NCBI GenBank assembly: GCA_035709005.1
Contig: DASTFB010000070.1
Span: forward strand, 5,223 to 69,222
Direction: 5' to 3'
Source of the DNA: Candidatus Methylomirabilota bacterium
GTDB lineage: Bacteria > Methylomirabilota > Methylomirabilia > Rokubacteriales > CSP1-6
Length of the DNA stretch: 64,000 nt
The notes under the pieces are model-generated. The model was given only the letters and a program-made list of their open reading frames with translations, made no database searches and had not been told where the DNA came from. Position numbers and translations under genes: made by a program. This document shows, piece by piece, positions 4,300 to 62,907 of this stretch; position 1 is the first letter of the stretch, and each line of letters opens with the position of its first letter.

Positions 4300-5621
4300 A
4301 CCGCCACCGGGGTGGTGCCGGGCGCCCTGGACGGGCGTCCAAGCACGGTTTCGTCGAGCAGCCGTCGCGTCGTCCCGGACGCGATGTAGGCCGACTTGAT
4401 GTCGAAGGGGTTACGCCGGAGCGCGTCCTTGAAGTGGCCGAGCGCCGTCTGAGTCTGCACCAGGCCCTTGAGCATGCCCACGTCGTTCGTGGTCCAGATG
4501 TCGCGGGACGGCCCCAGGATGATGGCGCCCACGAGGTGATCGCCACGCCACAGCAGCTTGCGGTAGGCCGGCCGGTCCGGCCTGAGCCCGACCATCGCCT
4601 CGGCGCCCTCGTCGTCCCAGGCACCGAAGGACGCGATGTCGAGGTGGCAGACCTCGACGATGTTCATGAGCAGGCTGCCCGGGTAGCGGACGTCCTTGCC
4701 CGCCATGTTGGCGCCGGCCACGCGCCCGTGCTCCTGCGCCGTCGGCTCGATGGCGTGCAGCGCCGGCGCCCCGGACACGCGATCGGGTCCCTCGGCCACG
4801 TCGCCGGCGGCGTAGACATTGGGCACGCTGGCCCGGAGATGGTCATCGACCAGGATGCCCTGCTCGATCTTGATGCCGGAATCCTTGAGCCAGTCGAGGT
4901 TCGTCCGGATCCCCGTGGCCATGATCACGACGTCGGCCTGGATGTCGGGGCCCCTGGCGAAGCGCAGCCGCTTGCGGCCCTTCGCCTCCTCGATCCGCGT
5001 CAACGTGGCGCCGGCGCGGACGGTGACGCCGTGCCGGCGCAGCCAGCCCTCCACGAGCTCGGCGCCCTTGGCGTCGACCATGCGAGGCAGGATGCGCGGG
5101 GCGATCTCCACGATCGTCAGTGTGGCGCCCAGGGCCAGGATGGAGTTGAGGATGGTGAAGGCGATGAATCCGGCTCCCACCATGACCACGTGGCTGCCCG
5201 GCCGGATGTCGGCGATCAGGGCCCGGCACTGGTCCAGCGTCCAGAACGAGTGGACGCCGGGCAGGTCGGCGCCCGGCACCGGGGCCTTCACCGGCGACGA
5301 GCCCGTGGCGATCAGGCAGTCGTCATACTCCACGCTGGTGCCGTCGTCCAGGGTGCACGCGTTGGCCGCCGTGCCGAGCTTGACGGCGCGCCGGCCCAGG
5401 TGCGTCTTCACGCCCCACTGGGCCAGCACGGCCGCGGCCGCCGTGAAGACATGGGACTCGGCGATGGAGCGGTCCAGATAGTACGGGAGCACCATGCGGG
5501 AGTAGGGCTTCTCGACGCTGACCAGCGTGATCTCCGAGCGCTCGCGTTCTTCCTCGCGGATCGTTCGCATCGCGTTCATGCCGGCCGTGCCGCCGCCGAT
5601 GATCAGATGACGCGCCGGCAT
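4296..5621 (-). CDS. FAD-dependent pyridine nucleotide-disulfide oxidoreductase (AOR electron-transfer subunit, AorC-like)
   Basis: Start MPARHLIIGGGTAGMNA is a dinucleotide-binding motif; a second Rossmann block VVMVGAGFIAF follows and AAGDVAEG lies near the C-terminus. Its ATG overlaps the ferredoxin stop at 5621. Confidence 0.85.
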   Translation of the reverse strand: MPARHLIIGGGTAGMNAMRTIREEERERSEITLVSVEKPYSRMVLPYYLDRSIAESHVFTAAAAVLAQWGVKTHLGRRAVKLGTAANACTLDDGTSVEYDDCLIATGSSPVKAPVPGADLPGVHSFWTLDQCRALIADIRPGSHVVMVGAGFIAFTILNSILALGATLTIVEIAPRILPRMVDAKGAELVEGWLRRHGVTVRAGATLTRIEEAKGRKRLRFARGPDIQADVVIMATGIRTNLDWLKDSGIKIEQGILVDDHLRASVPNVYAAGDVAEGPDRVSGAPALHAIEPTAQEHGRVAGANMAGKDVRYPGSLLMNIVEVCHLDIASFGAWDDEGAEAMVGLRPDRPAYRKLLWRGDHLVGAIILGPSRDIWTTNDVGMLKGLVQTQTALGHFKDALRRNPFDIKSAYIASGTTRRLLDETVLGRPSRAPGTTPVAV

Positions 5622-17552: not shown

Positions 17553-17660
17553 CACCTCGCGTGAAATGGGGAGGTCTGGAGGGGGCACCCTGCCCCCTCC
17601 AGGCTAAAGAGTGAGGTTTGGAGGGGGGCGCGCCTCGTGCCCCCCTCCAGGCTAACAATC
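17553..17660. repeat. family-A palindromic repeat element (copy 2)
   Basis: tcacctcgcgtgaaatgggg...ctggagggggcaccctgccccctccaggctaa...ttggaggggggcgcgcctcgtgcccccctccaggctaa, near-identical to 8038-8140; lies between the serA start and the SDR stop. Confidence 0.8.
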
Positions 17661-23440: not shown

Positions 23441-24370
23441 CTAGCCGCGGCGTCGCTCCTGGGCGCGCCGCACCCGGGCGCTTCCCAGCAGGGCACCCAG
23501 CGATTGCCGGGCGGCGAGGAACCCGGCCAGCGGATCCCCCTGGGCGAGCAGGCGCTGGCGAGCGTTGCGCAGATGGAAATCCTCAGGATAGATGCCCTGC
23601 TCGAGCTCCCGCCACTCCAGGGGCGCAGAGATGGCGGCGCCCGCATACTCCCGGACCGAGTACGGGCTCACCAGGGTGGCTCCCCGCCGGTTGCGCAGCA
23701 CGTCGATCAGGATCTTGCCGCGGCGGCGGGCCCGCCGCATGTCGAAGGTGAAGAGCGAGGGCTCCCGCTGGCGGGCCATGCGGGTGATCACCGAGGCCGC
23801 AGTCAGCACCTGATCGTAACTGTACACGGGCTCCAGGGGCACCATGACGTGCAGGCCGCGCCCGCCGGAGGTCTTGACCCAGCTGCGGATCTTGAAGCCG
23901 GCCAGAAGGCTCCGCACCAGCATGGCGGCGTTGCGGACCTCGCGAAAGGCGATCTCCGTGGGATCGATGTCGAACAGCATCACGTCGGGACGATCGATGG
24001 CCTGCACCGCCGACGCCCAGGGATGAAAGGAGATGTAGCCCAGGTTGACGAGGTAGGCCAGGGCGGCCCGCTCCCGGCCGATGAGATAGTCGGCGTAGCC
24101 CTGGGCGGTCTGGTCGCTGCGGATCCGCCGGGTAGTGATCCACGATGGCAGGCCGGGAGGCGCCGCCCGCTGGTAGACGTACTCACCGCTGTCCAGAGCC
24201 CGGAGCAGGCTGAATGGCCGGTCGACCAGGAATGGCATGAGGTGGTCGGCCATGTCCAGGTAGTAGCCGAGCAGATCCTCCTTGGTGACTCTGTCTTCCG
24301 GCCACAGGAGCGCCTCGGGGTTTGTGAACAGGATCCGACGGCCGTCGATCTCTTCGACACGCGTGCTCAT
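23441..24370 (-). CDS. non-homologous end-joining DNA polymerase domain protein (LigD PolDom / primase-polymerase)
   Basis: ...ILFTNPEALLWPEDRVTKEDLLGYY... and ...FDIDP... are LigD polymerase-domain signatures; stand-alone ~310 aa. Confidence 0.8.
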   Translation of the reverse strand: MSTRVEEIDGRRILFTNPEALLWPEDRVTKEDLLGYYLDMADHLMPFLVDRPFSLLRALDSGEYVYQRAAPPGLPSWITTRRIRSDQTAQGYADYLIGRERAALAYLVNLGYISFHPWASAVQAIDRPDVMLFDIDPTEIAFREVRNAAMLVRSLLAGFKIRSWVKTSGGRGLHVMVPLEPVYSYDQVLTAASVITRMARQREPSLFTFDMRRARRRGKILIDVLRNRRGATLVSPYSVREYAGAAISAPLEWRELEQGIYPEDFHLRNARQRLLAQGDPLAGFLAARQSLGALLGSARVRRAQERRRG

Positions 24371-24544
24371 CGCCCCCCCTGCCGCCACCCCTCGCCTGCT
24401 CCGGGGACGCCCGAGGAGGGTTCGGCGAGGAATAGGAGCCGACGTGCCTGCATCTGTTGCGTGAAGCAAGCAATTCAATTGCCACGTCTGGCGGGGGGGT
24501 GGGAAAACGAGTTCTCAGTGTTACCGGTCGGATCGAGCGCCGGG

Positions 24545-27500
24545 TCAGCCGAAGTCGTGCGACGGCACGGCGCCGCCGGGTCCCTGCAGGGGCCGGACCC
24601 GCCGCGCGCGGACGGAAACGACGCCGTCCTGGGTCTGGAGGATCCCGTCCACGAGAAGGTAGGGCGCGGCGACGAGCACGAGGCGGTGTCGCTCGAACAG
24701 TTGCGGGGTCACGATCACGTTGGCGATGCCCGTCTCGTCCTCCAGGGAAAGAAAGACGAATCCCTTGGCGGTGCCCGGGCGTTGCCGCACGATCACGCTG
24801 CCGGCCACCCGCACAACACGTCCATGGGCGACCCGGGCCAGGTCGCCGGCCCGGACGATTCCCTGGCGCGCCAGCGTCGAGCGCAGCAGGGCCAGGGGAT
24901 GGGGCCCGAGGGTCACGCCGGTGCCCGCGTAATCAGCGTCCAGACGCTCGGCCACGCTCATCTCCGGGAGCGGGCTCGGCTCGGTGGACGGCTCGGCGGC
25001 TTGCAGCAGCCCCGGAAGCACCGGGCGGGCGGCCTGCCAGAGCGCCGCCCGCCGCGTGCCGTTCAGGGCGTCGAGCGCCCCCGTGGCGGCCAGCGCGGTC
25101 AGCTCGTCGCGCTCGAGACCGGCCCGCCGGGCGAGGTCGGCGAGTGAAGCGAATGGGCGCTCGCCGCGCGCCCGGGCGATGGCCCGCCCGGCGCTCTCGC
25201 GCAATCCCTTCACGTAGCGGAGGCCTAGTCTGATTTTGAACAGGGCACGGGCACCCGGCCGGGGGAGTCCCGAGGGGGGCGTAGCCCCCTTCGGTTGAAA
25301 GTCGCCACGCCCGTGCCCCGCCGCAATCTCACCCGGCGCTGGTTTTCCTGCCCGATCAGAGTCCCGATCATCGGTCTCGGTCTCGATCGCACACAACCAG
25401 TCGGAGCGGGTGATGTCGATCGGGTGGATCGTCAGGCCGTGACGCTGGGCGTCTTTGATGATCGTGGCGGCGTGATAGAAGCCCATCGGCTGGTTGTTGA
25501 GCAGCGCGGCGTAGAATGCGGCCGGATGGTGAGCCTTGAGATAGGCGCTAGCGTAGGCCAGCAGGGCGAAGCTGGACGCGTGCGAGTTGTGGACCACGAG
25601 GTCGTTGGCGAGAAAGTTGTGGTCGCCCTCGATCTCGAGATCATAGGTGGCTCGGACGCCGACCGGCGCGATGGCGACGATCCGATCCCAGCCGAGCGAC
25701 CCGATCCGCTGATGGCGCGGCCGGCCTGTACCTCCGACCGACGGTAATGTCCGCGCGGCGGCGATATGCTCGCCGATGCCGAGGGTGGCCAGCGGGCGCC
25801 ATCCGGTCGCGGTGAGCAAAGGATGCTCGGCCGTGGCCATGATCTCTCGGCCCTGCGCGGTACGGAGCCGGTAGACCATCCGGGGCCCGCTCGACCTGGC
25901 CTCGAGCACGCGCCGACGGCTCAGACGCAGGCCCGGGGCACAGGCGAGCGTGCTGGCCAGCCGGACTTTGCCGTTCGCGACATCCTCGATCGTGATCCAC
26001 CGCCCGGTGTCGGCGTCCATCACGCGTGTCCCGCCCGCGACACATTCGGGGAAGCCGTACAGCGCGAACGCCGTGATGGCGTGCGCGATCTGGTCGGCAG
26101 CGACGCCGGTGATGCCCCGGGTGGCCATTCCCGCCCGGAGCTTCTGCTCCACCTCGGCCATCCGCCGCTCGCTGCGCTTGAAGCCGAAGGCCCGGCGGAG
26201 CTCCTCGGCTTCGGTGCCGGTGAAGCCGGCGGCCACCATGGCCATCCGGAGCAATTGCTCCTGGAAGAGGGGCACGCCCAGCGTGCGCTCGAGGATGGGC
26301 TCCAGGCTCGGGTGCGGATAACTGACGGGCTCGCGTCCGCGCCGCCGGCGGATGTAGGGATGCACCATGTCGCCCACGATGGGGCCGGGACGGATGATGG
26401 CGACCTGGACGACGAGGTCGTAGAACCGCTCGGGGCTGATGCGGGGAAGCGTGGCCATCTGGGCCCGGCTCTCCACCTGAAAGACGCCGATCGTGTCGGC
26501 CCGCTGCAGCATCGCGTAAACGGTGCGATCGTCCGGCGGCAGGTGCCCCAGATCGATGTCGGCGCCGGTTTCCCGCACGATCGCGATCGCCTCCTGGAGC
26601 ACGGACATCATCCGCAGGCCGAGCAGATCGATCTTGATGATGCCCAGCGCCGCGCAGTCATCCTTGTCCCACTGGATCACGACGCGCCCCGGCATGGTGG
26701 CCGGCTCGAGGGGCACCACGTCGTCGAGCCGGCCGGCGGCGATGACCATCCCGCCCGAATGCTGGCCGAGGTGACGGGGCAGATCTTGCAGCCGTGTCCA
26801 CAGCGCGGCGAAGGCGCGGATCCGCGGATGGCGCGGGTCGCACCCCGCTTCGGCCAGGTGCCGGGTGAGCAGATCGTTGGGGTCCTGATAGCCCCAGTTG
26901 GGGGCCAGCCGGGCCAGGCGATCCTGGAACTCGGCCGGCAGCCCCAGGGCCTTGGCCACCTCCCGGGCCGCGCTGCGGCCCCGATAGGTGATCACGTTGG
27001 CGGTCATGCCGGCGCCCAGCCGGCCGTAGCGGCGGTACACGTACTGGATCACCGCCTCCCGGCGCTCGACACTGGGCAGATCCATGTCGATGTCGGGCCA
27101 CTCGCCGCGCGCCTCCGAGAGGAAGCGCTCGAACAGGAGGTCCATGCCGACGGGATCGACGGCGGTGATGCCGAGCGCGTAGCACACGGCGCTGTTGGCC
27201 GCCGAGCCCCGCCCCTGCACCAGGATGTCGTGGGTGCGGCAGTACTCGATGATGTCCCAGACGATCAGGAAGTAGCCGGCGAGGTCGAGCCGGCCGATGA
27301 TGTCGAGCTCGTGATCGACCTGCCGGCGGGCCCGCGCGGCCAGCCGACCGCGGCCGTAGCGCTGCCGGACGCCGGCGTCCACGAGCCGGCGCAAGTGCGC
27401 CGGGGCGGTCTCACCGGGCGGCAGCGGAAAGTCGGGGAACCGGTAGCCGAGGTCCTTCAGCGTGAAGCCCAGGCGCAGGGCCAGCTCGCCGCTCTGGTGG

Positions 27501-28240
27501 ACCGCGTCGGGCAGATCCCTGAACACCCGGGTCATCGTGGGCCCATCACGCAGCTCCCGCTCGGCATTGGGGCCCAGGCGCGTGCCGGCGCGGTCGAGAT
27601 CGACCTTCTCGCGAATACAGGTGAACACGTCAGCGACCGCCCGACCGCCCGGCCGCGCGTAGAGCGGCTGGTTGGCGGCGACGAGGGCCACCCGCGCGCG
27701 CCGGGCCAGCGTGACCAGCGCCTCCAGCACGCGCTCCTGGTCCCGATCGAAGTGACGCTGCACCTCCACGAAGCAGTTGGAGCGTCCGAAGATCCCCACG
27801 AGCCGGTCGAGCCAGGCCCGCGCCTCCTCCGGGCCACCCGCGGCCAGACGGCGCGCCAGTGGGCCCCGTGCGCCACCGGTGAGACAGACCAGCCCGTCGA
27901 CGTGGCCGGTCAGGTCGTCCAGCGTGGCCACGGCCTTGCCCTTGGGAGCGCCGAGCTTCGTCCGGGTGATGAGTCGGCAAAGGTTGCGGTAGCCCTCCCG
28001 ATCCTCCACGAGCAGGGGCAGCCGCGAGCCGTCGTCGAGGGTGAGCTCGCTTCCCACCAGCGGCTTCACGCCCGCTCGCACCGCGGCCTGGTGGAACCGC
28101 GCGGCGCCGTAGAGCCCGTCGCGATCCACCAGCGCCAGCGCCGGCATCCCCCGGCGCGCCGCCTCGGCCACGAAGACATCCGGCTGCTCGGCACCCTCGA
28201 GAAACGTGAACGCGGACTGCGCGTGCAGTTCGATGAACAT
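24545..28240 (-). CDS. dnaE2: error-prone DNA polymerase DnaE2 (ImuC), interrupted by a mini-intein and a repeat-encoded insertion
   Basis: MFIELHAQSAFTFLEGA... PHP N-terminus; polymerase III alpha core; last gene of the imuA-imuB-dnaE2 cassette. Confidence 0.9.
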   Translation of the reverse strand: MFIELHAQSAFTFLEGAEQPDVFVAEAARRGMPALALVDRDGLYGAARFHQAAVRAGVKPLVGSELTLDDGSRLPLLVEDREGYRNLCRLITRTKLGAPKGKAVATLDDLTGHVDGLVCLTGGARGPLARRLAAGGPEEARAWLDRLVGIFGRSNCFVEVQRHFDRDQERVLEALVTLARRARVALVAANQPLYARPGGRAVADVFTCIREKVDLDRAGTRLGPNAERELRDGPTMTRVFRDLPDAVHQSGELALRLGFTLKDLGYRFPDFPLPPGETAPAHLRRLVDAGVRQRYGRGRLAARARRQVDHELDIIGRLDLAGYFLIVWDIIEYCRTHDILVQGRGSAANSAVCYALGITAVDPVGMDLLFERFLSEARGEWPDIDMDLPSVERREAVIQYVYRRYGRLGAGMTANVITYRGRSAAREVAKALGLPAEFQDRLARLAPNWGYQDPNDLLTRHLAEAGCDPRHPRIRAFAALWTRLQDLPRHLGQHSGGMVIAAGRLDDVVPLEPATMPGRVVIQWDKDDCAALGIIKIDLLGLRMMSVLQEAIAIVRETGADIDLGHLPPDDRTVYAMLQRADTIGVFQVESRAQMATLPRISPERFYDLVVQVAIIRPGPIVGDMVHPYIRRRRGREPVSYPHPSLEPILERTLGVPLFQEQLLRMAMVAAGFTGTEAEELRRAFGFKRSERRMAEVEQKLRAGMATRGITGVAADQIAHAITAFALYGFPECVAGGTRVMDADTGRWITIEDVANGKVRLASTLACAPGLRLSRRRVLEARSSGPRMVYRLRTAQGREIMATAEHPLLTATGWRPLATLGIGEHIAAARTLPSVGGTGRPRHQRIGSLGWDRIVAIAPVGVRATYDLEIEGDHNFLANDLVVHNSHASSFALLAYASAYLKAHHPAAFYAALLNNQPMGFYHAATIIKDAQRHGLTIHPIDITRSDWLCAIETETDDRDSDRAGKPAPGEIAAGHGRGDFQPKGATPPSGLPRPGARALFKIRLGLRYVKGLRESAGRAIARARGERPFASLADLARRAGLERDELTALAATGALDALNGTRRAALWQAARPVLPGLLQAAEPSTEPSPLPEMSVAERLDADYAGTGVTLGPHPLALLRSTLARQGIVRAGDLARVAHGRVVRVAGSVIVRQRPGTAKGFVFLSLEDETGIANVIVTPQLFERHRLVLVAAPYLLVDGILQTQDGVVSVRARRVRPLQGPGGAVPSHDFG
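25237..25345. repeat. family-B repeat element (GGGCACGGGCACCCGG...CGCCACGCCCGTGCCCCGCCGC) with nested family-A hairpin, in-frame inside dnaE2
   Basis: Same core as the tandem copies at 28244-28408 and the inverted copy at 37140-37185; encodes the ~45-aa insertion ...TETDDRDSDRAGKPAPGEIAAGHGRGDFQPKGATPPSGLPRPGARA... between conserved DnaE2 blocks. Confidence 0.5.
25586..26044 (-). other. mini-intein (153 aa, no homing-endonuclease domain) inside dnaE2
   Basis: Host junction ...ALYGFPE|CVAGGTRVMDADTG...DLVVHN|SHASSFAL... First residue Cys, terminal HN, +1 Ser; flanks reconstitute the conserved YGFPESHA(A/S)SFA motif. Confidence 0.8.
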
Positions 28241-28243
28241 TTA

Positions 28244-28408
28244 TAGGGTGCGGGCACCCGGGCTTCGCCACGCCCGTGCCCCGCCGCGATCACCCGCGGT
28301 GGTGATTCGGTTGCGCTGCGTGCGTCGCGACATCACAGGGTGCGGGCACCCGGGCTTCGCCACGCCCGCACCCCGCCGCGATCACCCGCCACGGTTGCTC
28401 GGTTGCGG
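28244..28408. repeat. family-B repeat, two tandem ~72-bp copies in the imuB-dnaE2 intergenic region
   Basis: agggtgcgggcacccgggcttcgccacgcccgtgccccgccgcgatcacccgc... occurs twice (28244-28315, 28337-28408) with a 21-nt spacer. Confidence 0.7.
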
Positions 28409-28450
28409 GGCGTGCGGCCCGACTTCGGGCGCCACGCCCGTGGCGCGCCG

Positions 28451-29953
28451 TCAGTCGTAGATGCCATCCAGGACCCAGTGGTTGGCCATGCGATCGAGGG
28501 CGAGCCGGCACAGCGTGCCGTCGTCGAGGAGGAGGTCCCACTCGTCGCGAGCCCAGGCGCGGCCGTCCCACCACTCTCCCGAGACTCGCCAGGGCCCGGC
28601 GCACGCGACGACACGCCGGCCCACGCCGGCCCACTGCACGGACGCCGGGTGGTCGGCCGCCGCCACCACCTGCACCCTCACTGGTGGACGGATCCGCCGG
28701 AGGACCACGCTCGATACCGGCGCGGCGCCGGCGCGATCGCCCTCCTCGGTGGGAACGAAAGGCACCAGCGTGACCGGGTCCGGGTGATGGGAATCGACGA
28801 GCCGCGGCGACCCGAAGTTGTCGGGCCCCACCAGCTCGGTCAGATGAGCAACCAGGGCAGCCAGATCGCGCTGGCGCGGCGCCGGGGGCTGTCCTAGCTG
28901 TCCTTGCCCGGGCGCGACCGGCACGACGCGGGCGCTCACCGCCACCGCGGTCACCGCCGCCGCGGGTGGCCGCGCGGCGAGCTCGCAGCGGATGAGCGGG
29001 ACGAGGACCGCGCGCTCACACGCCGGCTGGGCCAGGGCGATCGCGCGCTCGTGCCGCTCGCCTGTGGTGAGCCGGAGGCGGAGATCCAGCCGGTCGGCCC
29101 ACACGTGGGCGGCGCCCAGGCGAGCGGTGAGCCGTTCGAGCACACGATCCAGCACGACGGCCAGCATCTGGAGATCCTCGATTTCCCAGTCGAGGTCCTG
29201 AGCCTCCTCCCAGAACGGTGGGGGGACGTACGGCCGGAACGGATCACGATCGTGCCCGCAAGCGAGATCGTGGAGGCGCAAGCCTTCCTGGCCCAGCCGC
29301 TCCGCCAGCCCCGCGCGCGGCAGCGCCGCCAGCTCTCCCAGCGTCCGCACCCCCCAACGCCCCAGGGTCGCCGCGGTGGTCGCCGGCAGGTCGAGGACCG
29401 CGAGCGGCGCGGTCGCGAGCACCGCCCGTTCACCGCCGGGCGGCACCACGGCGACCCGGCGGCTCGTGGCCCGCACGGCGACTCCGGCGACCGTTCGGCT
29501 GCTCGCGACACCAGCGCGGGCGGCGAGGCCCACCATTCGGGCCTGGCGCACCAGGCGCTCTGCCACGGCGCCGTCGTCACCGAACAGCCGTTGTAGGCCG
29601 GCGACATCGGCATGGACGAGCCCGGGAGCGGTGTCTTCCACACGGGGGGACACGGCGAGCGCGGCTTCGACGAGCGCATGCTGCGCCGACACCAGGGTCT
29701 CCTCGCCGAGCGCTCGGCAGACGAGGTCGGGGCAGCGTGCACGGGCCTCGCTCTCGGTCATCCTCGGCCGCACGCCGGCCTCGCGGGCGATGGCGTTGGC
29801 CTCGACCACCCGCGTCACCGGCGGCGCTCCCCGGACGATCGCCAGGGCGCGCTCGGCCAGCACCGGCTCGCCGCGCTCGGCGGCCGCCGCTGCGAAGAAC
29901 GGCACCCACACGCAGGCGACGCGGCCGCCCGGCGAGCTCACGCCGTCCACCAC
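28451..29953 (-). CDS. imuB: ImuB (Y-family polymerase-like protein of the mutagenesis cassette)
   Basis: 500 aa, ...VACVWVPFFAAAAAER... N-terminus typical of ImuB/DinB-like proteins; sits between imuA and dnaE2. Confidence 0.7.
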   Translation of the reverse strand: MVDGVSSPGGRVACVWVPFFAAAAAERGEPVLAERALAIVRGAPPVTRVVEANAIAREAGVRPRMTESEARARCPDLVCRALGEETLVSAQHALVEAALAVSPRVEDTAPGLVHADVAGLQRLFGDDGAVAERLVRQARMVGLAARAGVASSRTVAGVAVRATSRRVAVVPPGGERAVLATAPLAVLDLPATTAATLGRWGVRTLGELAALPRAGLAERLGQEGLRLHDLACGHDRDPFRPYVPPPFWEEAQDLDWEIEDLQMLAVVLDRVLERLTARLGAAHVWADRLDLRLRLTTGERHERAIALAQPACERAVLVPLIRCELAARPPAAAVTAVAVSARVVPVAPGQGQLGQPPAPRQRDLAALVAHLTELVGPDNFGSPRLVDSHHPDPVTLVPFVPTEEGDRAGAAPVSSVVLRRIRPPVRVQVVAAADHPASVQWAGVGRRVVACAGPWRVSGEWWDGRAWARDEWDLLLDDGTLCRLALDRMANHWVLDGIYD

Positions 29954-30498
29954 CGGGTGACGTCAGAGGGGACGACGCCGCCCAGGGAGCCGCGCCCGCG
30001 GAGCAGGCGCACGGCCGTGCCCACGCGGGCCAGGCGCGTCGGCGCGCCGCGCGGACCGCTCCACTCCAGCGACCGCCGGACGGCCTGGACGGCCAGCGCC
30101 GCGCCGGGACCGGCGATGCGCCGACTCGCCAGGATGAGCAAGGCCGCGCCCGACCGGCGAACGGCCAGCCGCAGTCGGAATGCGAGCGTGAGAGGCAGGC
30201 GCGGCGGACGCTCGCCGACGTCGAGCGCGACGACCGTGAACCCGGGGCACCGCACGAGACGATCAGCCACGCGCAGCGCGACATCGTGACGTCCGCCGCA
30301 ACGCACCCACAGCAGGCGCCGGAGATTCACCCCGGCGCGCGCGGCGGTCGAGGGATCGAAGGCGTGGTCGGTGTCTACCAGCGCGGCCACCGCCCCGCGC
30401 TGCGTGACTTCGCGCAAGCAATCGACGAGCAGGCTCGTGCGTCCGGACGACGGCGCACCGACGATCTCCGTGATCTCGCCCGGCACGATCATGCCCAT
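29938..30498 (-). CDS. imuA: ImuA (RecA-fold SOS cell-division-inhibitor-like protein)
   Basis: ...EITEIVGAPSSGRTSLLV... Walker-A-like ImuA motif; overlaps imuB by 16 nt. Confidence 0.65.
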   Translation of the reverse strand: MGMIVPGEITEIVGAPSSGRTSLLVDCLREVTQRGAVAALVDTDHAFDPSTAARAGVNLRRLLWVRCGGRHDVALRVADRLVRCPGFTVVALDVGERPPRLPLTLAFRLRLAVRRSGAALLILASRRIAGPGAALAVQAVRRSLEWSGPRGAPTRLARVGTAVRLLRGRGSLGGVVPSDVTRWWTA

Positions 30499-33649: not shown

Positions 33650-33720
33650 ATCTCTTCTTTAGCCTGGAGGGGGCAGCGACTGCCCCCTCCAGCCCCCCCA
33701 TTCGCGCGAGGCGTCACCCC
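33650..33720. repeat. family-A palindromic repeat element (copy 3, inverted orientation)
   Basis: ttagcctggagggggcagcgactgccccctccag...ccattcgcgcgaggcg is the reverse complement of the 8038/17553 elements. Confidence 0.75.
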
Positions 33721-37067: not shown

Positions 37068-37139
37068 TAGAGCACGAGACTCCGCGCGCGAATGATCGCG
37101 ACGCAGATCGCGTGACCGAGCGACCGCGCGCGCGGTTCC

Positions 37140-37185
37140 GGCGGGGCACGGGCGTGGCGACAGCCCGGGTGCCCGTGCCCTGTTG
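37140..37185. repeat. family-B repeat core, inverted copy
   Basis: ggggcacgggcgtggcgacagcccgggtgcccgtgccc is the reverse complement of the 28244/25237 core. Confidence 0.6.
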
Positions 37186-37857
37186 ATGAAACATTCCCGG
37201 ACGGTCGCCGAGGTCCGTTCGCCGCTCTCGGGGCGGATCCGCGTCGTCGAGGACCGGGCCGAGCGGCGGCTGATCGTGGCCGGGGACACGCTGTCCGTCT
37301 ACCCGCTGAACGGCGACTGGTCCCGCCTGGACCGCGAGTACTGGGCGCGAGCGGTGGCGGGCGTCCCGCGACGCCGGCAGTCCACCGCGCTGCTGGTCGG
37401 CCTGGGGGGAGGCACGCAGGTGCATCTGCTGGCCGAACGTATCCGGCCGCGGCTCATCAGCGTGATCGAGCGAGACCCCACGATCATCCGGCTGGCCACC
37501 CGCTGGTTCGGGCTCGATGCGCGAGAGGGTCTGGAGTTCCTGTGCGGCGAAGCCGAACGCGTCGTCCCCTGGCTGGCCTCCACGCGGCGGCGCTTCCACT
37601 TCATCATGGAGGATGCCGCCTACGCCGGCGACGTCGCCGAGGCCCTGCCGCTGGCCCTCGGCCTGGCCGGTCTGGTCGCTCCCGATGGGCTGCTGGTGAT
37701 CAACCGGCACCGGCGCCGCGGGGTGGACCGGCTGGCCGCGGCCCTGCGGCCGCTGTTCGCCGCGGTCACTCTCCGGCGCGTGCGTAGCGAGGGCGAGAAC
37801 GTCCTCGTGTCTTGCGCGCGCCCGCGACGGCGTCAGCCGGCGGGCAGGCGCTTGTGA
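37186..37857 (+). CDS. class I SAM-dependent methyltransferase / spermidine-synthase-like protein
   Basis: [11 protein letters not shown] glycine-rich SAM motif and a downstream acidic FHFIMEDA block. Confidence 0.55.
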
Positions 37858-49550: not shown

Positions 49551-49707
49551 TCATCGGAGGGGGCGAGACGCCCCCTCCGATACCTCCCCGATTCGCGCCA
49601 GGCGCGACAGCGCGCGTGTCTCACCCGCACCTGTTCTCATCGGAGGGGGCGAGACGCCCCCTCCAATGCCTCCCCGGTTCGCGCGAGCTGCGACCGCGCG
49701 CGTGTCT
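49551..49707. repeat. family-A repeat variant, two tandem ~78-bp units in the SBP-permease intergenic region
   Basis: tcatcggagggggcgagacgccccctccgatacctccccgattcgcgccaggcgcgacagcgcgcgtgtctcacc repeated twice; contains the GGAGGGGGC-gagac-GCCCCCTCC hairpin. Confidence 0.8.
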
Positions 49708-49728
49708 CACCGGCGGATCCGGACCCGC

Positions 49729-61950: not shown

Positions 61951-62907
61951 CTACTCCTTGATCAACCGCTCCCGCCGTAGCAGGTAAAAGTGTCGCACGG
62001 AGCTGTAGAGGTCCAGGGTGGTCTCCTCCACGCCCTGGAAAAGGTCATAGTACAGCGCCCGCTCGTTGACCATCTCGCCCACCCGCATCCCGGCCCGCTC
62101 CCAGAAGAAGGGCAGCACGTAGCTGAGCGGGTCCAGAAAGATGTCGACACCGCGGCCGATGCCGTCGCGGACGGTCATGGGCTCGAAGAACGGCAGCACC
62201 AGATAGGGGCCGGGGGTCGCGCCCCAGACCCCCAGCGTCTGGCCGAAATCCTCGCGGCTCGGCTGGATCCCCCAGTAGTCCTTGGCCGGGTCGAAGAGGC
62301 CTCCGATGCCGGCCGTGCTGTTGATGAGGAACCGCGCGAGCTCGCGACCGGCGCCGGCGGCCTTGCCCTGCAGCAGACTGTTCACGAGGCGGGGGACGAC
62401 GCGAATGTTGTCGAAGCCGTTGGCGATGAGAACCTGAAACGGCTCCGGCATCACGTGGCGGTACACGTTGGCCACCGGCTTGAACACGTAGCGGTCGACA
62501 CGCAGGTTGAAGGTGAACACCTTGTCGTTGAACGTCTCCCAGGGATCGTACGGCTCGAACTCGTATTCGTCCTGGGTGCCGGGTCCCTGGGAGATTATGA
62601 ACATTGGGGGGGGCGAGACGCCCCCCCCAATTCCCCCCCGATCCGCGTGGGGCCCGACACCGGGCCCCCCAATTCCCCCCCGGTCCGCGTAAGCCCCGAC
62701 GCCGGGCCCCCCGGTTCCTCTCCGATCTACGTGAGGCCCGACACCGCCTTCCCAGATTCGCCCCGGACCTGCGTCCAGGGAGCTCCGTCCGCCGAGGGGG
62801 GCACCGGTGTCGATGCTGGCGCAGCCGACGAGAGAGAGGACGACGGCGAGGGCAGCGACCACACCACTGCATGCGCGACCGACGTCGCCCAGCGCGCGAC
62901 GCACCAA
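61951..62907 (-). CDS. mlaA: MlaA/VacJ-family lipoprotein with repeat-encoded Gly/Pro-rich linker
   Basis: Lipobox ...LSLVGCAS; MlaA core ...YEFEPYDPWETFNDKVFTFN...; residues ~45-100 are encoded by the 62596-62760 repeat. Confidence 0.8.
   Translation of the reverse strand: MVRRALGDVGRACSGVVAALAVVLSLVGCASIDTGAPLGGRSSLDAGPGRIWEGGVGPHVDRRGTGGPGVGAYADRGGIGGPGVGPHADRGGIGGGVSPPPMFIISQGPGTQDEYEFEPYDPWETFNDKVFTFNLRVDRYVFKPVANVYRHVMPEPFQVLIANGFDNIRVVPRLVNSLLQGKAAGAGRELARFLINSTAGIGGLFDPAKDYWGIQPSREDFGQTLGVWGATPGPYLVLPFFEPMTVRDGIGRGVDIFLDPLSYVLPFFWERAGMRVGEMVNERALYYDLFQGVEETTLDLYSSVRHFYLLRRERLIKE
62596..62760. repeat. family-A-related repeat: GGGGGGGG-cgagac-CCCCCCCC hairpin followed by three ~42-bp direct repeats
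   Basis: (tcccccccgNtccgcgtNNggccccgacNccgggcccccc) x3; translated in-frame within mlaA as GPHVDRRGTGGPGVGAYADRGGIGGPGVGPHADRGGIGGG. Confidence 0.7.

Follow-up and report, generated by a model that had tools for sequence, protein, structure and literature searches.

The 64,000-nt stretch analysed here (the window; positions 5,223–69,222 of the forward strand of contig DASTFB010000070.1, Candidatus Methylomirabilota bacterium, assembly GCA_035709005.1) carries on its minus strand a gene for an error-prone DNA polymerase, dnaE2, and within the reading frame of this gene lies a full-length copy of a dispersed hairpin repeat, here referred to as family B. The gene was assigned on the basis of five Pfam domains found above cut-offs (PHP, DNA_pol3_alpha, finger, HHH_6 and OB), of its top database relatives, which are named "error-prone DNA polymerase", come from Candidatus Rokubacteria/Methylomirabilota and share 66–92% identity with it, and of the adjacent imuA and imuB; it is therefore the dnaE2 of a Rokubacterium imuA-imuB-dnaE2 cassette, a gene order that recurs in the loci of relatives. 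The features are listed below by coordinates and strand.

24545–28240, minus: dnaE2 (imuC), error-prone DNA polymerase III (Pol III) alpha-like polymerase and host of the repeat; intact open reading frame (ORF) of 1231 aa
25235–25381, minus: whole variable protein loop, aa 954–1002, consisting of TET plus the element, between the strand ...WLCAIE and the strand IRLGL
25235–25372, minus: family-B element, in-frame insert of 138 nt or 46 codons, aa 957–1002, DDRDSDR...PGARALFK
25301–25372, minus: 5' part of the element, with the GATGATCGGGACTCTGATCGGGC tail, the variable region and the 5' stem arm
25259–25300, minus: nested 42-nt hairpin piece (TTTCAACCGAAGGGGGCTACGCCCCCCTCGGGACTCCCCCGG) in the loop of the main hairpin, encoding FQPKGATPPSGLPR
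25235–25258, minus: 3' part of the element, with CCGGGT, the 3' stem arm GCCCGTGCCC and the TGTTCAAA tail
28241–28334, minus: family-B copy 1 of the imuB-dnaE2 spacer, profile E 1e-18, ending in a TAA that abuts the dnaE2 ATG
28335–28427, minus: family-B copy 2 of the same spacer, profile match at 28335–28423, E 4e-16
28429–28453, minus: partial third copy, touching or overlapping the imuB stop codon; weak, E 0.85
28451–29953, minus: imuB, Y-family IMS domain (domain match), mutasome partner 5' of dnaE2
29938–30498, minus: imuA, RecA-like (domain match)
37093–37185, plus: family-B copy in an intergenic region, running up to the start codon of the plus-strand gene that follows, profile E 1.9e-19

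The 1231-aa frame of dnaE2 runs through the repeat without interruption, as had been claimed in an earlier note made from the letters of the window, and the peptide quoted there (...CAIETETDDRDSDRAGKPAPGEIAAGHGRGDFQPKGATPPSGLPRPGARALFKIRLGL...) is exactly the one that the repeat encodes. The insertion of about 45 aa proposed in the same note proved to be one of 46 residues, rich in Gly, Pro, Arg and Asp. Its extent had been given as 25237–25345, which locates the repeat correctly but stops about 27 nt short, since the element continues to approximately 25372 and is a composite with 42 extra nt. The HHH_6 match is enlarged as well: it covers aa 935–1065, that is, 131 residues for 89 profile positions, and so contains some 42 surplus residues.

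Aligned by sequence, the insert falls between residues 878 and 887 of Thermus aquaticus (Taq) Pol III alpha and between approximately 818 and 833 of E. coli alpha; it occupies the tip of a beta-hairpin that immediately precedes the helix-hairpin-helix (HhH) motif in the beta-binding domain. The spliced DnaE2 (intein removed) was modelled with AlphaFold2 from a shallow 55-sequence alignment, and the model was used for the local picture only. In this model strands are formed at residues 798–801 and 848–851 (spliced numbering), the flanking blocks have a predicted local distance difference test score (pLDDT) of approximately 87–92, and residues 804–845 have a pLDDT below 50 and no secondary structure. 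The insert is thereby predicted to be a disordered excursion at the hairpin tip which leaves the fold undisturbed, and it is probably tolerated as a surface loop. A surface loop had indeed been anticipated in the earlier note, and the low score and missing secondary structure between two strands agree with it, although the model does not prove solvent exposure. The GEWPDIDMDL motif and every domain of DnaE2 are intact, and we infer that its polymerase function is retained despite the insert.

Removal of the loop in the manner of an intein was considered and rejected, as the intein match in Pfam does not extend beyond aa 776–885 and the loop has no splicing residues; the repeat-encoded loop is expected to stay in the mature protein. 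The gene does contain an intein elsewhere, as Intein_splicing is a further Pfam domain matched in DnaE2: a 153-aa mini-intein occupies aa 733–885 (25586–26044, minus strand), with the boundaries GFPE–CVAGG and LVVHN–SHASSF. The corresponding site holds a full-size intein with a LAGLIDADG domain in some relatives (e.g., P0001 at locus L046, 1455 aa) and a mini-intein in others, and it is unoccupied in P0004 and P0006. The dnaE2 of the window is thus host to two unrelated selfish in-frame insertions, the mini-intein and the repeat.

A scan of 24400–28600 for promoters and terminators found nothing, so that the element provides no obvious internal promoter or terminator in dnaE2. Downstream of the gene lies one for a LigD primase-polymerase (23441–24478, minus strand). 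A LigD gene regularly follows the imuA-imuB-dnaE2 cassette (loci L121, L124, L125 and L127, with Ku in addition in L127), linking translesion mutagenesis and end-joining genes in one neighbourhood in these Rokubacteria.

Structure and distribution of the family-B repeat

A consensus unit was derived from an alignment of 69 complete intergenic copies from other genomes, oriented as their flanking genes. It is about 96 nt long and consists of a GGTGATCGCGACTCTGATCGGGCG-like tail (the GACTCTGATCGG 5' tail), approximately 30 variable bases, GATCGCGGCGG, a hairpin with a 10-bp G+C stem (GGGCACGGGC / GCCCGTGCCC) and a 17-nt loop, and the end TGTTCAAT(A/G). The profile built from these copies matches dnaE2 twice, at 25301–25370 (model positions 3–72, E 1.3e-11) and at 25237–25258 (positions 76–97). 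As model positions 3–97 are covered with a gap at 25259–25300, the dnaE2 copy is full length, with 42 nt interposed in its hairpin loop. It has the "sense" orientation usual for the family relative to flanking genes; its 5' stem arm reads GGGCACGGGC on the coding strand (plus-strand position 25309–25318), and its 3' stem arm corresponds to 25243–25252 of the plus strand, where it is the one that reads GGGCACGGGC.

The nested 42-nt piece is itself a hairpin of the form G5-6C...GC5-6, like that of a second family of repeats in the window (family A). When it was locally aligned to the family-A copies at 49551, 49637 and 62601, between 11 and 34 of 2000 shuffles scored equally, so a resemblance of the piece to that family is plausible but only modestly supported by the alignments. 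The composite of a family-B unit and the nested hairpin is found outside dnaE2, in an intergenic copy (L119) identical to the window copy over 58 nt and at L091, L133, L134 and L135, as well as in the dnaE2 of P0119 and P0120 (L129, L131, L132). Being present at other loci, it represents a subfamily and no peculiarity of dnaE2. A search of metagenome contigs with the exact 42-mer gave no matches, and a degenerate pattern for the composite gave five loci.

Family A was observed in its own right through the pattern GAGGGGGC-N5-7-GCCCCCTC, with four exact matches in the window (17579–17599, 33667–33689, 49557–49577 and 49643–49663) against 0 expected. It also forms tandem arrays, of 86-nt units at about 49.55 kb (49551–49714) and of 42-nt units at about 62.6 kb (62601–62774). 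At locus L127 (17424–17676) a further tandem repeat of 87 nt, with 2.9 units and 94% matches, contains GGGGGCCCC...GGCCCCCC hairpins that recall the window repeats at 62.6 kb.

That the family-B core is also present in the imuB-dnaE2 spacer and near 37140, as stated in the earlier note, was confirmed by counting. With at most three mismatches the core CGCCACGCCCGTGCCCCGCCG has five sites in the window, against 0.08 expected, and none of 100 shuffles reached five; one site is in dnaE2 (25303), three are in the spacer (28266, 28358 and 28430, all plus strand like the first) and one is at 37139 (minus). The other arm, GGGCACGGGCACCCGG, is found exactly at 25243 and 37165 and with two mismatches at 28246 and 28338. 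According to repeat finding, the dnaE2 copy shares 84% and 74% identity with the spacer copies and has 86% complementarity to the copy at 37127.

The spacer itself (28241–28453, minus strand) amounts to 2.3 tandem family-B units. Copies 1 and 2 follow each other with a 92-nt period, and copy 2 carries the compensated TG/CA variant of the stem. Copy 1 contains a 30-codon ORF (MSRRTQRNRITTAGDRGGARAWRSPGARTL), in which the ATG shares bases with the TGA before it (TGATG) and the TAA is directly followed by the ATG of dnaE2 (TAAATG). In relatives the spacer measures 3 nt (L121, L124), about 111 nt (L122) or 195 nt (L127). The copy at 37093–37185 occupies a location typical of the family, and the hairpin predicted for it (region 37090–37190) folds as expected (z = -3.4).

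A census of the family was made by scanning for the core 21-mer in one genome per species. At least 120 stretches contain it, and among the matches listed nearly all are metagenome-assembled genomes of Rokuibacteriota/Methylomirabilota; the few isolated matches outside this group, in G+C-rich bacteria such as Streptomyces and Luteimonas, are apparently due to chance. Judged by this distribution, family B is an abundant repeat specific to Rokubacteria, and at numerous loci it is present as two to four or more tandem units with a period of 74–92 nt. Its habitat is within operons, between co-directional genes, and it is oriented with transcription: in 53 of the 69 copies a start codon (ATG or GTG) that opens an ORF of 100 codons or more is located at -3 to +25 nt from the hairpin end, most often at +6 (TGTTCA followed by ATG), compared with 10 of 69 for the antisense end and 26% for random positions.

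The dinucleotide pairs at the variable stem positions of these 69 copies are CA/TG in 36, CG/CG in 15, TG/CA in 13, TA/TA in one and broken in four, and no one-sided intermediates were seen among them. The 42 doubly changed cells exceed the 15 ± 3.3 of shuffled data, none of 500 shuffles reaching 42. This pattern in the aligned copies indicates that the stem is preserved through compensatory change, though part of the covariation signal could stem from a few subfamilies rather than from many events.

Identity with a known riboswitch or small RNA was rejected, given that Rfam scans of the whole window and, with greater sensitivity, of 25100–28600 gave no family at gathering score; the sole match at E ≤ 1 was AS-traI (E 0.64), which is unrelated. 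A literature text search on Rokubacteria repeats also returned nothing relevant to family B, and the repeat appears to be undescribed so far.

States of the DnaE2 loop and origin of the insertion

The loop was compared in 111 sequences (110 relatives and that of the window), its length being measured between ...D[IV]TRSxWLCx[IV]E and [IV]RLGLRYVKG. It has 3–9 residues in 71 of them and more than 9 aa in 40 (39 relatives and the window), with a maximum of 196 aa; in 28 of the 111 (27 relatives and the window) it is clearly derived from the repeat. The states found among close relatives are as follows.

P0001, P0008, P0009 (87–90% identity): loop of AAS only, between ...CTME and IRLGL
P0010 (89% identity): loop of seven residues
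P0006, P0007 (89–91% identity): sense repeat, with the hairpin in another frame (FRRGAGG...CPHPVQT)
P0004 (92% identity): reverse complement of the repeat (QGASHS...PHPAG...PDQSRG)

The earlier note had proposed an alignment to see whether the insertion is lineage-specific. The segment does not belong to the conserved part of DnaE2, being absent from the nearest relatives P0001, P0008 and P0009, but the term lineage-specific would oversimplify, as the same loop is reoccupied across Rokubacteria. The DNA of the loci of nine relatives was compared base by base. The empty sites (L046/P0001 and L123/P0008) read ...ATG GAA GCG GCC AGC ATC CGG; in the window, P0006, P0093, P0120, P0086 and P0112 the element stands between GA(A/G) and (A/G)TC CG(N), and antisense copies at the same site (P0004, P0030) start directly after ATT GAA. 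Sense copies in dnaE2 have the CA/TG stem in the window, P0086 and P0112 and the TG/CA stem in P0006, P0093 and P0120, and the copy of P0004 holds an extra internal hairpin shared with the intergenic copies of L013 and L077.

Translation of identical bases gives IAAGHGRG for the window, P0086 and P0112 and FRRGAGV for P0006, P0007, P0093 and P0120, and the repeat is read on the opposite strand (QGTGTRA...) in P0003, P0004, P0021, P0030, P0063 and P0098. Since the shared bases are translated in different frames and on different strands, conservation is at the nucleotide and not at the protein level; orthologues with the same segment conserved as protein, which the earlier note had named as the finding to be expected if it were wrong, were not encountered. 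Two tandem family-B units are present inside the loop in P0112 and P0114. In a neighbour-joining tree based on the remainder of the protein, loops in the sense, antisense and empty state occur inside the small clade of the window sequence and again in other clades. On these comparisons the DnaE2 loop is a recurrent target of the repeat, occupied in either orientation, by members of different subfamilies and in some cases by tandem copies.

Other observations concern the same loop. In the dnaE2 of P0079 (L127, 8778–9337) it is filled in-frame by a different, 63-nt repeat of 8.9 units that are 93% identical (SHNHLSQATHASSQSQPPMQQ...), giving the 196-aa loop; one to three units of this repeat are found across the sister clade (P0016, P0017, P0020, P0022, P0031, P0032, P0056), and the loci compared contained it nowhere else. 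The loop codons of P0010 (L126) are GTT GAA CAG GGA GGG GAA GGC CCC ACA, beginning with GTTGAACAGGG, the antisense terminus of the element, and this short loop may be what a deleted copy left behind. In P0002 a sense copy is represented by its tail alone (TADRDSDRVEEHPSAK). Outside the loop, the other widely length-variable internal site of the aligned core (from which the loop, the intein and a stretch of about 29 aa between the intein and NNQPMGF were left out) is the linker between HhH and OB (DnaE2 aa ~1080–1100, ...ARPVLPGLLQAAEPSTEPSPLPEM...), to which relatives add up to approximately 65 residues, some of them repetitive (P0076: ...RRSDEPIQRDASRRSGEPIQRDA...); no family-B copy was present in this linker in the sequences examined.

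An open frame through the element is not surprising, because the majority of copies are free of stops in every frame (52–62% of copies per sense frame, 76–86% per antisense frame), and insertions with a length that is a multiple of three therefore stand a good chance of being tolerated. The suggestion in the earlier note that the repeats insert as multiples of three fits the 138-nt dnaE2 copy, but this length is most simply explained as what selection leaves, rather than being established as a property of the element. Further coding insertions were sought via long open frames, an unreliable procedure in G+C-rich DNA, which yields long spurious ORFs; of those found, only one was convincing by protein sequence, that between pxpB and pxpC. 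In L031 (~2560–2760), L038 (~1620–1800) and L135 (~1690–1890) the PxpB and PxpC (5-oxoprolinase subunit) domains are separated by an in-frame family-B element and apparently fused into a single ORF. The copies are antisense in L031 and L038 and a sense composite in L135, making this junction a second site struck in both orientations, and AT(T/C)GA(A/G) precedes the element both here and in dnaE2.

The origin that we consider very probable is the insertion into dnaE2 of a mobile or recombinogenic intergenic repeat, which has since persisted as a disordered loop that is neutral or nearly so. An intergenic family-B repeat would have entered the coding sequence in the orientation of the gene; the 138-nt copy, nested hairpin included, has no stop in the dnaE2 frame, leaving the gene open and the element to be translated; and the peptide would be incidental, the DNA (stem and tail) being conserved between copies and the amino acids not. 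Candidate routes of insertion are a trans-acting enzyme or transposase, replication slippage or template switching at hairpins, and gene conversion.

A number of points weigh against this reading. It is from its distribution that the element appears to be mobile; no transposase, of the RAYT type or other, came to light, no search aimed at one having been made. The alignment of 69 copies contains no terminal inverted repeats, as the palindrome is internal and near one end, and the termini GGTGATCGCGACTC... and ...CCCTGTTCAATGA are not inverted copies of each other. When filled and empty sites were compared, no duplicated bases that would represent a target-site duplication were found beside the dnaE2 copies; the ATT GAA preceding antisense copies coincides with the ATTGAA end of the element itself. 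All sense copies in dnaE2 share their junctions, GA(A/G) joined to ACGG.. on the 5' side and ..TTCAA(T/A)CA joined to ATCCGG on the 3' side, and because of this identity part of the pattern could be due to a single old insertion, later altered by several deletions and gene conversions, rather than to many independent insertions. Pairwise identities of the variable halves, some of them inflated by free end gaps, fail to separate one insertion from many. The source is an uncultured organism, probably represented by a metagenome assembly. As for the protein, the AlphaFold2 model as a whole is of moderate quality (mean pLDDT 67, predicted template modelling score 0.48), and the low pLDDT of the loop hints at disorder without proving it.

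The shared junctions speak for a different history, in which a single ancient sense insertion was inherited vertically, short loops arose by deletion, changes of stem and frame by small insertions and deletions or by gene conversion, and the antisense copies separately. It accepts the same main claim and differs on history only, and we regard it as possible but doubtful. Partial deletions do occur, as the tail left in P0002 demonstrates, and P0010 may hold a footprint; even so, at least about six independent in-frame losses would be needed on the tree, and the stems of close relatives are two compensated pairs apart (CA/TG in the window and TG/CA in P0006, at 88% identity of the spliced protein). 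The nested 42-nt piece is moreover found with both stem types (window and P0120), the dnaE2 copies resemble one another no more than they do intergenic copies (a weak test), and antisense copies of two subtypes at one site still demand repeated events. Chimeric assembly would be another explanation, given that abundant near-identical repeats are a known source of chimeric contigs and that the organism is uncultured, and dnaE2 might likewise be decaying into a pseudogene; both are highly improbable in view of the exact frame, the continuation of the DnaE2 alignment on both flanks, the intact conserved motifs such as GEWPDIDMDL and domains, and comparable insertions, with the same junctions, at this codon in independent assemblies from other samples (L121, L124, L125, L128, L129, L131, L132).

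Near-neutral carriage of the repeat is also to be compared with the possibility that the loop has been co-opted, its length or copy number tuning DnaE2 through contacts with DNA, ImuB or the clamp near the HhH motif in the manner of a contingency locus. An open frame kept in many lineages, with loops above 9 aa in 40 of 111 sequences, tandem copies (two units in P0112 and P0114, 8.9 units of the 63-nt repeat in P0079) and a site next to a DNA-binding motif would all suit such a function, which we nevertheless consider unlikely, as the peptide is unconserved and read in differing frames and strands, is absent from the nearest relatives and is predicted to be disordered. More speculative, and in our view quite improbable, is that the loop does not simply tolerate repeats but is favoured by them for landing and amplification, where insertion, inversion and changes in tandem copy number reversibly alter the mutasome, or that synthesis by DnaE2 at hairpins itself spreads the repeats; this idea draws on one or two family-B units and on up to about nine units of the 63-nt repeat. 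Were the former true, the inducible mutagenesis machinery of Rokubacteria would be subject to a "contingency switch" driven by repeats.

In a conserved enzyme, a single codon position at which the element is sense (in two frames), antisense, tandem, composite or absent constitutes a natural experiment, of use in studying how proteins absorb random peptides and how repeats choose their targets. In annotation, repeat-derived length polymorphism and low-complexity loops should be expected in Rokubacterial DnaE2 and in fused PxpB-PxpC, and binning and assembly tools should anticipate such repeats within genes.

Comparison with known repeats and insertions

Selfish DNA inside protein-coding genes is best known from Rickettsia, and the case described here extends it to a free-living, uncultured soil phylum with large genomes. 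According to PMC10969869 (citing Ogata et al. 2000 and 2002), Rickettsia palindromic elements (RPEs) have entered numerous genes without breaking the frame, and the original reports predicted that such insertions would be compatible with the fold and function of the host protein. The likeness lies in a dispersed palindrome of about 100–150 bp, found both in intergenic regions and in-frame within unrelated genes, to which it adds about 30–50 aa, with a peptide that is a by-product of the DNA element; in family B too the dispersed repeat is found outside genes, the frame is kept and orthologues with empty sites exist. The differences are an unrelated phylum and a sequence for which no homology is expected, family B being a G+C-rich repeat of Rokubacteria, its mainly intergenic placement with a strict rule of position and orientation 5' of start codons, and its repeated insertion into one loop of one protein in both orientations and as tandem copies. 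To our knowledge, such repeated occupation of a single protein loop, in two orientations and in tandem, has not been reported for RPEs.

With regard to intergenic habit, family B can be compared with mycobacterial interspersed repetitive units (MIRUs), described in PMC3184786 (citing Supply et al. 1997) as units of 40–100 bp within mycobacterial operons that form tandem arrays and whose ends overlap the neighbouring genes. Both are intergenic in operons, co-transcribed, organised in tandem arrays of variable copy number and provided with G+C-rich internal inverted repeats, and the co-directional genes, fixed orientation and abutment on the downstream start (in the 53 of 69 copies mentioned above) correspond to this pattern. 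The ends likewise touch or overlap neighbouring stop and start codons; a clear overlapping small ORF is represented by one case, copy 1 of the window spacer, a systematic count of overlapping mini-ORFs being confounded by spurious open frames in G+C-rich DNA. Family B has no sequence relationship to MIRUs. We know of no in-frame insertion of MIRUs within conserved enzymes.

Repetitive extragenic palindromic (REP) sequences and bacterial interspersed mosaic elements (BIMEs) resemble family B in being short, abundant, G+C-rich imperfect palindromes in operons whose stem is kept by compensatory change, whereas the family-B unit is longer, is asymmetric (tail, hairpin and A/T-rich end) and is also found inside genes. 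Inteins are similar as selfish in-frame insertions in conserved polymerases, the dnaE2 of the window itself carrying one, and differ in that the repeat-encoded loop has neither splicing motifs nor a Hint fold. Identity with a miniature inverted-repeat transposable element was rejected, there being no terminal inverted repeats and no target-site duplication at dnaE2. The closest counterparts of family B are RPEs with respect to its in-frame behaviour and MIRUs with respect to its intergenic habit, and its unusual aspect is the recurrent use, in two orientations, of one loop of an error-prone polymerase.

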